Below, piece after piece: positions 21,302 through 26,597 of a stretch of 57,901 bases of DNA. The notes beneath the pieces are model-generated. The model saw only the letters and a program-made list of their open reading frames with translations, was not told the origin of the DNA and did not search any database. A program made the translations under genes and the position numbers. The stretch is from a virus (taxonomy: Duplodnaviria > Caudoviricetes), in IMG/VR virus record IMGVR_UViG_3300047550_004781, positions 1 through 57,901 of that record. One strand, 5' to 3'. The stretch's first letter is position 1; each line of letters begins with the position of its first letter.

Positions 21302-21570
21302 TGGAAACATCCCTAATCCAATCTCTGTGCAAGGAATGCCGTGTTCGTCCTTGGCTTGTTTTCATGGAAATTTTGGGAACTGGGGCAAGCGTAATTGCTG
21401 CCCTAGTTCTCAGCCTGAATTTGATGCATATTTGGGCAGTGTATTGGTTATGGTTGATGGGTAGTTTGAGCCTTAGTTTGAGCAGTTGGTGGCGCAAAAA
21501 TCTATTGCTTTTGGCATTGATGGTCTACTACACTGTTCTCAATATTTTGGGATTGTGGAATTTTTCATGA
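21298..21570 (+). CDS. small membrane protein
   Basis: Three hydrophobic segments; stop overlaps the pol start (ATGA). Confidence 0.55.
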   Translation: MMETSLIQSLCKECRVRPWLVFMEILGTGASVIAALVLSLNLMHIWAVYWLWLMGSLSLSLSSWWRKNLLLLALMVYYTVLNILGLWNFS

Positions 21571-23816
21571 CATATGTGGATGCTTTTTTAAATAGGGACA
21601 AAAATACTGTGGACGTTGTGGAACGTGTGAATGGACGCAGGGTCTACAACAGTTATCCCAGCAGATATGTAACTTACTTCCCCAGTGTCAAAGGCAAATA
21701 CACCAGCATCTTTGGTGACAAACTGGACAAATATGAAACCACCAAACATGAAGATTTCCAACGTGAATTGCGTATGTTGCCCAAAGATCGTCAATTTGAA
21801 AGTGACATCAATCCCATCTTCCGTTGTTTTTATGACAATTACAAGGACTCACCAATTCCCAAATTACATGTGGCATTCTTCGATTTAGAGGTAGACTGGC
21901 ACAAAGATCGAGGATTCAGCAGCACAGAAGAGGCATTCAATCCAATCACCGCAGTTAGTGTGTTTTGTGATTGGTTGGACACCAATTTCACTCTTGTAAT
22001 CAAACCCAAGACCTACACTTGGGAACAAGCTACTGAAATATGTGACAAATTCGACAACACTGTGCTGTGTGAAGATGAAGCACAATTGATTGATGTGTTC
22101 CTCACATTGATTGAAGACGCAGACATACTCACAGGTTGGAATTCAGAGGGGTACGATATTCCCTATTTGCACAACCGTATTGTTCAGGTGCTCAGCAAAG
22201 AACACACCAAGAGGTTGTGTTTGTGGAACCGGTTTCCACGCAAAAGAGAATATGAAAGCTATGGCAAGCCCACTGTCACGTATGATTTGGTGGGCAGGGT
22301 GCATTTGGATTACTTGCAACTGTATCGCAAACATACCTATCATGAAATGCACAGTTATCGACTGGATTTTGTGGGCGAGTATGAGGTTGGAGAGAAGAAG
22401 GTGGCCTATGAAGGCAGCCTGGACAAACTTTACAATGAGGACTTTGAAAAGTTTATTGCCTATAACAGACAGGACGTCATGCTGTTGGTGAAAATTGATC
22501 GCAAGCTTCAATTTATCGAGTTGTGTAATGCGCTGGCACATGAAAATGGTGTGCTGTTGGCTACTACCATGGGCAGTGTGTTGTTGATTGACAATGCCAT
22601 CACAAATGAAGCTCACAACTTGGGTTTGATTGTGCCTATTCGAACTAGGGATCATCAACCTGACACAACTGATGATCATGAGGATGAGGACAGCGAGCCC
22701 AGAGGCATTGTGGGTGCATATGTGGCCGATCCAGTTCAGGGCATGCATGAATGGATTGGTGGTGTGGACATCAACAGTCTGTATCCCAGCACCATCCGTA
22801 GTTTGAACATGAGCAAAGAAACTGTTGTGGGTCAGATCAGGTCCACCAGCACTGATCGTTTGATCAATCATCGTATTCACAAAGAAAAGCGCAGTTTTGC
22901 TGACAGCTGGAACGAAATGTTTGGCACCTTGGAATACAACCAGGTGCTCAACAGAGAACTTGTGATGCTTACTGTGGATTTTGAAGATGGCACGACTGCT
23001 GAATTGAGTGGTGATGAACTCTATCAGTGGGTGTTTGAGAATCCCAAACGACAATTGACCATCAGTGCCAATGGTACTATTTTTGATGTGAGCAAGGATG
23101 GTGTTGTGCCAGGATTGCTGGCACGTTGGTACAAAGAGCGTAAAGAGATTCAAGCTGAAGCCAAAAAATACGCCAAGATGGCTGATGAGGAGACTGATGA
23201 CGCCAAGAAAGCAGAATACAAAGAATTGGCAGAATTCTACGACAGAAGGCAGTTGATCAAGAAAATTCTGCTAAATTCGCTGTATGGCGCAGTAGGCAAT
23301 TCTGCAAGTCTGTATTTTGATAATCGCATAGCTCAGAGCACTACACTCACAGGTAGATGTATTGTGAAACACATGGGCAGCAAAATAAATGAGGTCATCT
23401 CTGGGAATTATCACCACAAAGGGGATGCTGTTGTGTACGGCGATACAGATTCGGTTGCAGCAGATAGTATCGTTCGAACTAGCATAGGCGATAAGGCAAT
23501 CGAAGACCTGTTTATGGCCGGAGATGTATTTTGGCAGGAGGGTGATAAAGAGTATTCTCAAAATAAACACATAAAGGTGGTTAGCTATGACCATCAAAAG
23601 GAAACGGTCACACAATCGCCCTATCTTTATGTTTATAGACATAAGGTCAAAAAAAAGAAATATCGAATCACAACAGCTAATGGAAAAAGTGTTGTAGTAA
23701 CTGAAGATCACAGTATAATGGTTCTTCAAGATGGTATGCTTGTAGAGAAAAAACCAGCAGAGCTCACAAAGCATGATGTAATTGTTACCTCCCGCCGCGG
23801 AAAGCCAGGGTGCTAG
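21567..23816 (+). CDS. family-B DNA polymerase, N-terminal gene, fused to split-intein N half
   Basis: Exo motifs FDLEV, GWNSEGYD, YNRQD; pol motifs DINSLYPS, KILLNSLYG, YGDTD then intein SVAADS..VTEDHS; the last codons are read from the IS left end. Confidence 0.93.
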   Translation: MTYVDAFLNRDKNTVDVVERVNGRRVYNSYPSRYVTYFPSVKGKYTSIFGDKLDKYETTKHEDFQRELRMLPKDRQFESDINPIFRCFYDNYKDSPIPKLHVAFFDLEVDWHKDRGFSSTEEAFNPITAVSVFCDWLDTNFTLVIKPKTYTWEQATEICDKFDNTVLCEDEAQLIDVFLTLIEDADILTGWNSEGYDIPYLHNRIVQVLSKEHTKRLCLWNRFPRKREYESYGKPTVTYDLVGRVHLDYLQLYRKHTYHEMHSYRLDFVGEYEVGEKKVAYEGSLDKLYNEDFEKFIAYNRQDVMLLVKIDRKLQFIELCNALAHENGVLLATTMGSVLLIDNAITNEAHNLGLIVPIRTRDHQPDTTDDHEDEDSEPRGIVGAYVADPVQGMHEWIGGVDINSLYPSTIRSLNMSKETVVGQIRSTSTDRLINHRIHKEKRSFADSWNEMFGTLEYNQVLNRELVMLTVDFEDGTTAELSGDELYQWVFENPKRQLTISANGTIFDVSKDGVVPGLLARWYKERKEIQAEAKKYAKMADEETDDAKKAEYKELAEFYDRRQLIKKILLNSLYGAVGNSASLYFDNRIAQSTTLTGRCIVKHMGSKINEVISGNYHHKGDAVVYGDTDSVAADSIVRTSIGDKAIEDLFMAGDVFWQEGDKEYSQNKHIKVVSYDHQKETVTQSPYLYVYRHKVKKKKYRITTANGKSVVVTEDHSIMVLQDGMLVEKKPAELTKHDVIVTSRRGKPGC
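23451..23813 (+). other. split intein N-fragment (IntN, about 121 aa)
   Basis: Starts at Ser after YGDTD; block B TEDH; no C-terminal HN before the stop. Confidence 0.85.
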
Positions 23817-25094: not shown

Positions 25095-25599
25095 ATGGCT
25101 TGAATACAATAAGGAAAAATCCAAATCATCTAAAGTTGATTGGGTTATGGAGAAATTTGGCGTGGATCATGATCAAGCTTTAGAAATCATTGCAGCAAGA
25201 TATAAATCAAGATATACTTCACAGGCGGAACAGACATTTATCGACATGTTCGAGCATGCACTTGGTGAGTCGATACAATACAGTGTCAAGAATAAACAAT
25301 TTTGCATCTGGAACCCTTACCTCAATACCCCGTGTTTTTATGATATTGCTGACTCTAAACGGAAAAAAATTATTGAGTTCAATGGGGATTACTGGCATTG
25401 CAACCCAAGTAAGTATGCTGCCGATCATGTTTTGCGTCACACCGGAGCAACAGCCAAGCAAATTTGGGAAAGAGATTATCTCAAAAAGAAAGCGGCTTTG
25501 AATAAAGGCTTCAAAATTAAAATTGTTTGGGAAGGCGACTTTCAAAACAATCATGAAAAAATCCTAAAGGAGTGTGTAGAATGGTGGAACGAGAGCTAA
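25075..25599 (+). pseudogene. 5'-truncated Vsr/PD-(D/E)XK-like homing endonuclease
   Basis: SQAE..FYDI..IIEFNGDYWH..RD..K..GF..KIVWE; no native start, the ORF begins at the IS right end. Confidence 0.75.
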
Positions 25600-26597
25600 C
25601 AACCATAGATCAAATAGAATGCCTTGGCGAATTTGAGGATGAATATGTATATGATATTGGAATTGATGCGCATCATCCATACTTCTTTGCCAATGACATT
25701 TTAGTCCATAATTCAGTCTACTTCTCAGCATATCCTGTGATGAGCAAACTGGAAGAATTCAAGGATTTTGAATGGAGCAAGGAAGCCATTGTGCAACTGT
25801 ATGACCAGATTGCAGACATTACCAACGATAGCTTTCCTGAATTTATGAAACAGGCATTCAATGTGCCCGAACATAAATGTGTTATCAAAGCTGGTAGAGA
25901 ATTGGTGGCCAGCAAGGGTTTGTTTATTACCAAAAAACGGTATGCAGTTTTGATATACGACAAAGAAGGCAAACGCAAGGACTTGGATGGCAAGCTTGGT
26001 GAAATCAAGGCCATGGGTCTGGATCTCAAGCGCAGTGATACTCCCAAACCTGTGCAGGATTTTTTGAGTGATGTGTTGGTGTCAGTGTTGACTGATGCAA
26101 CCAAACAACAAGTGTTTGACAAGATCAAGCAGTTCCGTGCTGAATTTGCCAGCTGGCCCAGTTGGTCCAAAGGCACTCCCAAACGTGTGAACAATCTTAC
26201 CATGTATGGAGACATCAAACGCAATCAGGACGGCCTCAAGGATGTGTTCAGTAACAGGGGCGATGCCAAAAAGAAAACTATTCCAGGTCACGTGTTGGCC
26301 AGCCTAAACTACAACAATCTACGTGAAATCTACAACGACAACACCAGCATGCCCATCCAGGATGGATTCAAGGTAATTGTATGCAAATTGCGCAGCAATC
26401 CATTGGGCTTGACCAGTATTGCCTATCCGGTGGACCAACTTATCCTACCACAATGGTTCAAGGATTTGCCTTTTGACGATGAACTCATGAGTGAGACTTT
26501 GATTACCAAAAAGGTGGAGAATTTGTTGGGTGTGCTCAATTGGGATCTAAATGAAGCTCGAAACAATGAAAGTTTCGATCAACTGTTCACTTTTTGA
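25581..26597 (+). CDS. split-intein C half (44 aa) fused to the C-terminal part of the family-B DNA polymerase
   Basis: RBS AAGGAG at 25567-25572; YVYDI..FFANDILVHN|SVYF; KKRYA, KAMGLDLKRSDTP. Confidence 0.92.
   Translation: MVERELTTIDQIECLGEFEDEYVYDIGIDAHHPYFFANDILVHNSVYFSAYPVMSKLEEFKDFEWSKEAIVQLYDQIADITNDSFPEFMKQAFNVPEHKCVIKAGRELVASKGLFITKKRYAVLIYDKEGKRKDLDGKLGEIKAMGLDLKRSDTPKPVQDFLSDVLVSVLTDATKQQVFDKIKQFRAEFASWPSWSKGTPKRVNNLTMYGDIKRNQDGLKDVFSNRGDAKKKTIPGHVLASLNYNNLREIYNDNTSMPIQDGFKVIVCKLRSNPLGLTSIAYPVDQLILPQWFKDLPFDDELMSETLITKKVENLLGVLNWDLNEARNNESFDQLFTF

Follow-up and report, generated by a model that had tools for sequence, protein, structure and literature searches.

How does a phage keep an essential DNA polymerase when the gene is broken at its catalytic motif and a transposon sits in the gap, and how did the transposon come to be there? 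Both questions are raised by the polB locus of the virus record IMGVR_UViG_3300047550_004781 (IMG/VR; Duplodnaviria, Caudoviricetes), a stretch of 57,901 bases that we refer to, at its full length, as the window. Here polB is broken at YGDTD/S, with its halves on separate open reading frames (ORFs), and between the two halves of a split intein lie a complete tnpB-only insertion sequence (IS) of the IS200/IS605 type and what is left, the 3' half, of a gene for a Vsr-like homing endonuclease. As we argue below, it is likely that the essential polB was already split when an IS of an ordinary kind inserted into the selfish, dispensable endonuclease gene within it and that recombination between IS copies then removed ~574 bp, while the two polymerase pieces should, judging by their sequences and a structural model, still be joined via the split intein. 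Four plus-strand ORFs make up the locus (21486/21567..23816, 23866..25059, 25063..25599 and 25572/25581..26597), and they hold the following features:

21567..23450, plus strand: polB N-extein, covering exonuclease and palm as far as motif C (YGDTD); Pfam DNA_pol_B_exo1 and DNA_pol_B
23451..23816, plus strand: IntN, the N-terminal intein half, with Ser1 and TEDH in block B; Intein_splicing, 37 bits
23785..23788, plus strand: TTAC target site, resembling a target-adjacent motif (TAM), 5' of the IS left end; within the IntN codons ..GTT ACC
23789..25074, plus strand: tnpB-only IS200/IS605-type element, 1286 bp, with subterminal hairpins at both ends; delimited by homology with other copies
23866..25059, plus strand: tnpB, 397 aa, with RuvC D/E/D motifs and a zinc finger; Pfam HTH_OrfB_IS605, OrfB_IS605 and Cas12f1-like_TNB
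24855..25074, plus strand: putative omega-RNA scaffold and right end; terminal hairpin GCCACAGCCC-TTTA-GGGCGTGG
25075..25094, plus strand: predicted guide segment, the 3' flank of the IS right end; inside the endonuclease coding sequence
25075..25599, plus strand: 3' half of a Vsr-like (EDxHD-type) homing endonuclease gene; phrog_22677 positions 182–346 of 353
25566..25572, plus strand: ribosome-binding site AAAGGAG, read from the sequence; 8 nt ahead of the IntC ATG
25581..25712, plus strand: IntC, the C-terminal intein half, 44 aa, acidic, ending VHN; Intein_splicing profile positions 122–155 of 155
25713..26597, plus strand: polB C-extein, beginning SVYFSAYPVM; Pfam DNA_pol_B

The upstream ORF carries the polymerase as far as motif C and continues into IntN. 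Its N-extein is matched by phrog_262 (E 1e-144) and is 87% identical to the counterparts in two related viral loci, L008 and L009. Directly after YGDTD stands the N-terminal nucleophile of the intein, a serine encoded at 23451; block B is present as VTEDHS, the Intein_splicing score compares with a Pfam cut-off of 35.8 bits, and the best match among solved structures is the Aes123 PolB1 intein (9hth_A, E 9.6e-11, residues 4–112). The downstream ORF opens with an IntC that ends ..DILVHN/SVYF (25704–25715), the HN being followed by the +1 serine encoded at 25713, and this polymerase piece has start signals of its own, namely the ribosome-binding site and the ATG at 25581. While the ORF caller sets the start at GTG 25572, the MVE start at the ATG is common to the related loci L029, L118 and L119, and a like layout is found in L029, L069, L118 and L119. 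The initial annotation had placed the break at YGDTD/S, an IntN at the end of the first gene and, behind a separate ribosome-binding site, a 44-aa IntC ending VHN/S in the second; all of this holds, with IntN ending at 23816 rather than 23813 and the ribosome-binding site reading AAAGGAG rather than AAGGAG. Since intein-free relatives read YGDTDSIYFSAYPVM or YGDTDSGYFSAYPVM across the intein site, splicing would restore motif C (YGDTD-SVYF).

The same annotation had noted a basic patch in IntN and a strongly acidic IntC as a plausible association interface, and the charge pattern is borne out: the net charge is +6 for IntN residues 61–90 and -10 for the first 41 residues of IntC, and in a predicted model of the complex the basic YRHKVKKKKYRIT hairpin of IntN packs on an acidic IntC strand. 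The model scored 0.78 as compared to 0.23 for the best control, with runs agreeing in at least 94% of contacts and a partner pLDDT (predicted local distance difference test) of at least 73. The mark applied to such models is reached by 51 of 78 solved complexes and by 2 of 108 mismatched pairs; as similar complexes have been solved, the pass may be memory, and it speaks for likeness to solved complexes, not for activity. On this basis polB-N-IntN and IntC-polB-C would be made as two proteins, the intein halves of which would associate, splice and restore motif C. Even so, IntN does not end in its native way. Its last eight codons (SRRGKPGC) and its stop codon (23789–23816; stop at 23814–23816) derive from the left end of the IS, as had been annotated. 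The native ends in relatives are ..VTIL-stop and ..IITL-stop; the window's IntN reaches ..KHDVIVT, the counterpart in L118 is ..KDDIIVTIL-stop, and the same DNA string, ATTGTTAC, is found there.

What, then, occupies the gap? The ORF at 25063..25599 has no Pfam family and matches the C-terminal halves of 320–380-aa proteins: a search of 1.84 billion representative proteins gave 5134 relatives at E up to 0.001, and most of the best 150 are 320–380 aa long and matched in their C-terminal halves. The relatives have 144–205 extra N-terminal residues. Compared with these full-length proteins, which have their own starts, the remnant is without a native start, the upstream region and ~180 N-terminal codons, the half presumed to bind DNA, and the sole in-frame start upstream of it is a GTG inside the right end of the IS, 4 nt past the tnpB stop. 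The whole nuclease domain is retained. A model of the remnant built on 40 relatives (pLDDT 93.6) was compared with solved structures over residues 50–178, giving a VIA Z of 12.1 against Vsr (1cw0; root-mean-square deviation, rmsd, 2.6 over 114 residues), 10.9 against the catalytic domain of I-Bth0305I (3r3p; rmsd 3.5 over 95 residues) and 10.8 against the DUF559 protein 3hrl. E105, G108 and H112 do not vary among the 40 sequences, D109 and D138 hardly do, and the E, D, H and D columns are retained in the remnant; Pfam MTES_1575 is found in 16 of these relatives and DUF559 in five. A sequence search of solved structures with the remnant gave nothing meaningful, the family profile reached E 0.15 (3hrl) and 0.62 (3r3p), and the Foldseek E-values of the model are weak (~0.1), so the call of a Vsr fold rests on the VIA comparison. 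Taken together, the fold and the conserved residues indicate that the remnant is the complete nuclease domain of a member of the Vsr-like endonuclease family of PMC2677866. Endonuclease function has probably been lost.

The other occupant is the IS, the ends of which are defined by comparison among copies. Homology with a second copy in the window and with other viral contigs extends from 23784/23785 (TTAC plus IS) to 25074. The copies begin with TTAC and one variable letter (C, G, A or T), followed by TCCCGCCGCGG, and end with ..GTAGTTCAC, beyond which their flanks differ; TTAC stands at 9 of 17 left flanks and TTAY at 12 of 17, and the ends themselves are conserved in 17 left-end and 29 right-end instances. 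The element thus spans 23789 to 25074, or starts at 23790, since the letter after TTAC varies among copies. It has the defined ends with subterminal hairpins, common to independent copies, and the insertion 3' of a short target that mark such an IS. The encoded TnpB matches ISDra2 TnpB (8bf8, 8exa and 8h1j; E 2.2e-53, residues 5–352), its GVDVN, VSVETL and HRDTNAAINI motifs aligning with GVDLG, IAVEDL and DRDENAALNI of the related designed nuclease 9yyg, and by these motifs the protein looks intact. An ORF and Pfam scan found no Y1 (HUH) TnpA within 23789–25074, and the element is therefore of the non-autonomous, tnpB-only form. An omega-RNA is likely and would come from the 3' end of the element. 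In the consensus fold of eight copies, pairing of the terminal hairpin (the last 40 bases) is kept via compensatory changes in L091 and L092; the right end folded as a single sequence has a z-score of only -1.74, and Rfam at gathering thresholds gave no match anywhere in the window, this right end included.

The initial annotation held that an RNA-guided nuclease had displaced most of the endonuclease gene. A complete tnpB element and only the 3' part of the endonuclease gene do lie between the intein halves, as Pfam and the phrog_22677 match (182–346) confirm, and tnpB does stand at the place of the 5' half, as the relatives and the sequencing runs described below reveal. ‘Most’ is, however, an overstatement, given that about half of the gene is missing and the entire nuclease domain remains, and the element is not specific to the intein: at least two near-identical copies are present in the window, along with remnants. 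Copy 2 (56812–57901; 90% DNA identity, 93% TnpB identity) is cut by the contig end, and left- and right-end remnants lie at 36.8, 38.0, 45.1 and 46.6 kb. Relatives of the IS with 72–95% DNA identity are found on other viral contigs, and in the sequencing run X3 the summed contig depth of the IS region is 137 to 457x that of the flanks, which makes the IS family a very common one in that community.

To place the locus among its relatives, we compared 160 loci: a viral set of the 80 best polB loci and a metagenome set of 80 loci found with the endonuclease remnant. This intein is present in 10 of the 80 viral loci, nine times split and once as a contiguous mini-intein (L024); the other 70 have no match to this intein, and L012, L019 and L020 read straight through the site. 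A split polB with a full 320–363-aa endonuclease gene is common among the relatives. The full, free-standing gene is found in seven viral loci (L015, L016, L018, L021, L026, L029 and L069), L008 and L009 have a decayed short endonuclease gene without an IS, and 54 of the 80 metagenome loci carry all five parts. With full, decayed and absent (mini-intein) states represented, this polymerase family exhibits every stage in the gain and loss of the endonuclease, and both kinds of allele that the initial annotation had hoped a comparison of related pol loci would turn up, intact-endonuclease and intein-free, were indeed found. There are two insertion points, two codons apart in motif C: YGD/TDS (L008, L015, L021, L024 and L026) and YGDTD/S (the window, L029, L069, L118 and L119). 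Several of the loci (L017, L029, L069, L121 and L122) have an extra ~1.5-kb insertion in polB-N, at about residues 540–572, upstream of the intein site. Not one of the 160 loci has a tnpB, and conversely none of 30 loci fetched through the IS has a polB, intein or endonuclease match.

The closest loci, L118 and L119, tell what the IS replaced. Their identities to the window are 79 and 75% for IntN, 80 and 75% for the 3' half of the endonuclease and 89 and 84% for IntC; they are without tnpB, and their endonuclease frames, counted stop to stop, are of 361 and 349 aa. Homology of the window to its relatives resumes at GACGAATCC, near codon 180 of the endonuclease, where the codon just before encodes Tyr in the relatives (..AAATAC/AAC in L118, ..AAGTAT/GAC in L119). 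Missing are ~574 bp, which take in the end of IntN with its stop codon, the spacer behind it and the first half of the endonuclease gene (~180 codons), and the IS occupies the exact spot; between the same two points L118 has 573 letters and L119 574. As had been noted earlier, removal of 23789–25074 takes the IntN frame to TAG 25181; removal of 23790–25074, with the alternative start of the IS, would let it run on in the endonuclease frame to TAA 25597.

Contigs (Logan) from three sequencing runs, X1, X3 and X4, bear on the same point, X3 and X4 being from two other studies. A 1923-nt contig of X3 matches 23162–23788 with three differences and 25073–25796 with eight (none in 25075–25094), with 572 other letters between. 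In X4 one contig matches up to 23788 and another from 25073, and both continue into letters that are not those of the IS. A near-identical phage without the IS thus exists and, the IS-free allele being in circulation now, the change is recent. The spacing in X3 resembles that of L118 and L119, suggesting that the IS-free allele has an intact endonuclease gene. As for the IS-bearing allele, X1 and its sister run are the only ones to show it. Of the X1 contigs, one of 7868 nt enters the IS from the upstream side and stops at 23846, and another of 11,857 nt begins at 25046; both have 0 differences to the window and both cross a junction, establishing that the two junctions are real in that sample.

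How did the IS come to stand in for 574 bp? In our view the free-standing endonuclease gene was most likely hit by an ordinary tnpB-only element, abundant in phage and community alike. At the left junction the IS is inserted in the normal way, behind a TTAC near the end of IntN; the right junction, in mid-endonuclease, follows ..AC in the IS-free allele and TAC or TAT in relatives, which looks like a second TTAC-like target. If an IS entered at each site, whether of a single genome or of two that infected the same cell, homologous recombination between the two copies would have removed the 574 bp. The phage would tolerate the IS because the polymerase was already split at this place and the endonuclease is dispensable. 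The junctions are also compatible with another path, in which a single insertion in mid-endonuclease was followed by loss of the 574 bp to its left, through slippage at TTAC-like repeats or aberrant cleavage and joining by TnpA, with no second IS involved: TTAC or ..AC is found at both breakpoints, the X3 allele keeping ‘AC’ before the right junction, and a Y1 TnpA is encoded in the same contig. Deletions at four-letter microhomology are rare, however, many IS copies are available for homologous recombination, and we know of no precedent for a flanking deletion made by TnpA; we consider the single-insertion path unlikely. The TnpA in question is encoded elsewhere in the window:

11159..11524, minus strand: Y1_Tnp gene (tnpA), 91 bits; adjoins a 40%-identical tnpB

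The full IS605-type element to which this tnpA belongs might mobilise tnpB-only copies. Sliding identity between copy 1 and seven other IS copies was patchy (83–100%); a clear mosaic of two blocks, which would have proved that copy 1 is a recombinant, did not emerge.

The X1 contigs also bring in the possibility that the 574-bp segment is still there, enclosed by identical IS copies behind IntN and in mid-endonuclease, and that the assembler dropped it. The IS is repetitive, the window itself ends inside copy 2, and the X1 contigs break inside the IS (at 23846 and 25046) with none spanning it. Furthermore, an X1 contig of depth 17.5 (the phage is at 16–18) joins 25075 back to 23785, which is the pattern expected if the source genome holds two IS copies around the segment, collapsed by the assembler. 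Yet several other IS-derived joints in X1 share this depth, and the back-join may lie elsewhere in the genome; the assembler traversed copy 1, though it stopped at copy 2; and in a phage proficient in recombination, direct repeats of 1.3 kb spaced by 0.6 kb would not be expected to be stable. We regard such a collapse as rather improbable, and even if it had happened both insertions would be real and the endonuclease gene would still be interrupted. It is more improbable by far that the contig is a non-viable variant in which the IS-derived IntN tail, or polarity exerted by the IS, abolishes assembly of the polymerase. The eight foreign residues on IntN and the finding of the allele in one sample only would fit such a defect, but the depth in X1 is even (16–18) across the 7.9-kb and 11.9-kb contigs, IntN is complete to within two residues of its native end, IntC keeps its own ribosome-binding site, and 23300–25800 has 0 terminator-like sites. 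The scan of that interval, which also returned four promoter-like sites against 6.1 expected, is uninformative.

Several observations weigh against the sequence of events that we favour, that is, two insertions and recombination in a phage that still assembles its polymerase. No intermediate of the two-insertion route was seen among the loci and contigs compared. X1 is possibly the window's own sample, in which case its support for the junctions is not independent, and its back-join, in which the number of letters between 25075 and 23785 is undefined, is the very joint that a two-copy arrangement would produce. An intact endonuclease gene in the IS-free allele is most likely, as suggested by the length of the segment and by the relatives. 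The lineage-specific codon changes in the remnant, 3 non-synonymous and 15 synonymous, include few replacements, which fits continued use as well as a very recent truncation. Finally, trans-splicing, including splicing with the eight-residue IS-derived tail on IntN, is a prediction.

Could TnpB itself now drive the locus? In the IS605/TnpB rule as given in PMC13565253 the guide is specified by the 3' flank of the element, which here is the predicted segment 25075–25094, unique in the window. An exact 23-mer of this region found no other viral contig. The segment was earlier proposed as a guide to be tried on intact-endonuclease and intein-free alleles alike. Lying inside the endonuclease gene, it cannot match an intein-free polB, and can at most match alleles with an intact endonuclease. 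One may therefore imagine TnpB acting as the homing nuclease of the locus: the guided omega-RNA would direct cleavage of intact-endonuclease alleles during co-infection, and repair would copy the allele that has the IS plus the deletion. The TnpB/omega-RNA element would then have taken over the slot of the homing endonuclease in a split intein, pre-programmed to cut and convert the intact allele in circulation. In keeping with this, TnpB looks intact and the right-end hairpin is kept with compensatory changes; the guide matches the IS-free X3 allele at 20 of 20 positions, preceded by the two letters ‘AC’ as in TTAC; both alleles exist in present-day samples; and PMC13565253 discusses, as a category, the homing of such transposons between co-infecting phages. 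On the other hand, evidence for a TAM in the intact allele is confined to the final two of its four positions, the corresponding letters being ATAC in L118 and GTAT in L119; and the guide has 7 of 20 mismatches to L118 and 9 of 20 to L119. The combination is absent from all 160 related loci, and while the IS-bearing allele comes only from X1 and its sister run, possibly the source sample, the IS-free allele comes from two other studies. We put the drive forward tentatively, as a somewhat unlikely account of the locus. If it is true, this would be a natural RNA-guided drive preying on a homing endonuclease gene, with both alleles present in samples of today.

Whichever way the IS arrived, the locus is a four-layered stack of selfish or self-splicing DNA, in which an RNA-guided transposon sits in a homing endonuclease gene, the latter in a split intein and the intein in an essential gene. 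It shows that other mobile elements can settle in the gap of a fractured gene and leave the phage viable. With a near-identical IS-free allele present elsewhere, the states before and after a very recent event are both available, and these natural alleles make testable both the homing of TnpB between co-infecting phages and the loss of homing endonuclease genes from inteins. The intein itself adds another cysteine-free member to the split PolB inteins and might serve as a tool.

The window is rated 15% complete. Its genes are those of replication and nucleotide metabolism, including DNA ligase, tRNA-His guanylyltransferase and IMPDH; relatives of its polymerase were found on viral contigs of up to 374 kb, and the phage is a large one. 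Neither the locus nor the IS has a nucleotide match among GenBank phages, in near or in distant search mode. A fragment of an sbtA-like gene (Pfam Sbt_1) gives a hint, and no more than that, of a cyanobacterial host: at 56507–57901 copy 2 of the IS is inserted after TTAC in an ORF of which the first 94 residues match Sbt_1, interrupting the gene. As to a cellular source of the IS, protein patterns yielded only 35–36% relatives, in one metagenome-assembled genome (MAG) of Endozoicomonadaceae, and we draw no host from them. Exact copies of the 23-mer of the IS right end are present in a number of Methanogenium genomes and here and there in MAGs of archaea and bacteria (L200–L220), though the window looks like that of a cyanobacterial phage. 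Two further tnpB-like genes and the Y1 tnpA lie in the window at 7025–8143 (minus strand), 11096–11611 (minus strand) and 11583–12827 (plus strand), the 40%-identical tnpB being head to head with the tnpA. Solo left-end and right-end remnants and a ~250-nt miniature element of this IS family (36767–36987, minus strand; 37754–38007, plus strand; 45050–45085, plus strand; 46562–46596, minus strand) flank a methyltransferase-like gene and a DUF2201 gene, and in contigs of X1 and X3 there are miniature IS forms composed of 21 left-end letters, 15–17 others and the last 43–45 right-end letters. The IMPDH gene (48602–50596) has a contiguous mini-intein at about residues 336–479, as judged by weak matches to Hint_2, Intein_splicing and PT-HINT; IMPDH is among the host genes of split inteins named in PMC2677866.

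How does the locus compare with known systems? Dassa et al. (2009; PMC2677866) described fractured genes, mainly of phage origin, in which a split intein is accompanied by a free-standing gene for a Vsr-like homing endonuclease. The layout there is that of our locus, as the initial annotation had recognised, and relatives of the window have the version with a full-length endonuclease: the gene of a DNA-synthesis enzyme lies in two ORFs with IntN and IntC, a Vsr-like endonuclease gene stands between them, and the ribosome-binding site of the downstream piece lies within the 3' end of the endonuclease gene. Unlike in those systems, the 5' half of the endonuclease gene is gone here and an IS200/IS605-type tnpB element is in its place; the word ‘transposase’ is absent from the main text of PMC2677866, the 26 loci of which may include this polB site. 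The Aes123 PolB1 intein, known from T4-like Aeromonas phages, trans-splices and has a solved structure (9HTH; PMC11923092); it is similar in being naturally split, in having no catalytic cysteines and in residing in a phage PolB-type polymerase. The likeness in sequence is distant, however, and no transposon is reported in the available part of that paper. With I-Bth0305I and the EDxHD endonucleases (PMC3239194; 3R3P) the remnant shares the fold of residues 50–178 and the conserved E, D, H and D columns, while the N-terminal half of the full-length relatives is missing from it and the profile match to 3r3p, at E 0.62, is not significant.

The element itself resembles ISDra2 TnpB and the tnpB-only elements of the IS200/IS605 group in its TnpB domains, hairpin ends, insertion 3' of a TTAC-like site and predicted guide from the 3' flank (PMC13565253). 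In contrast to the usual IS605 case, the flanks of the window's IS are 574 bp apart in the IS-free allele, and the equation of the empty site with TAM plus guide needs a second TAM at the right junction. TnpB genes in cyanophages are on record (PMC6293099 and PMC10286775); in PMC6293099, as far as its available text goes, TnpB and the intein or fractured-gene features are in different genes, and PMC13565253 treats inteins, in its available text, in general terms only. Among the papers listed by full-text searches, judged by titles and the openings of abstracts, none describes a TnpB element located within an intein or a fractured gene.

What is known, then, are fractured genes with split inteins and Vsr-like endonucleases, a split PolB intein and phage TnpB; what the locus adds is a tnpB element in the gap of a fractured gene. 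The nearest analogy is with IStrons, in which a group I intron is fused to an IS200/IS605 or IS607 element. As in IStrons, a tnpB IS is nested in a self-splicing element and its insertion is thereby harmless to the gene (PMC13565253). Unlike in IStrons, splicing at the window's locus would take place at the level of protein, by a pre-existing split intein to which the IS is not fused, in a pairing seen once.

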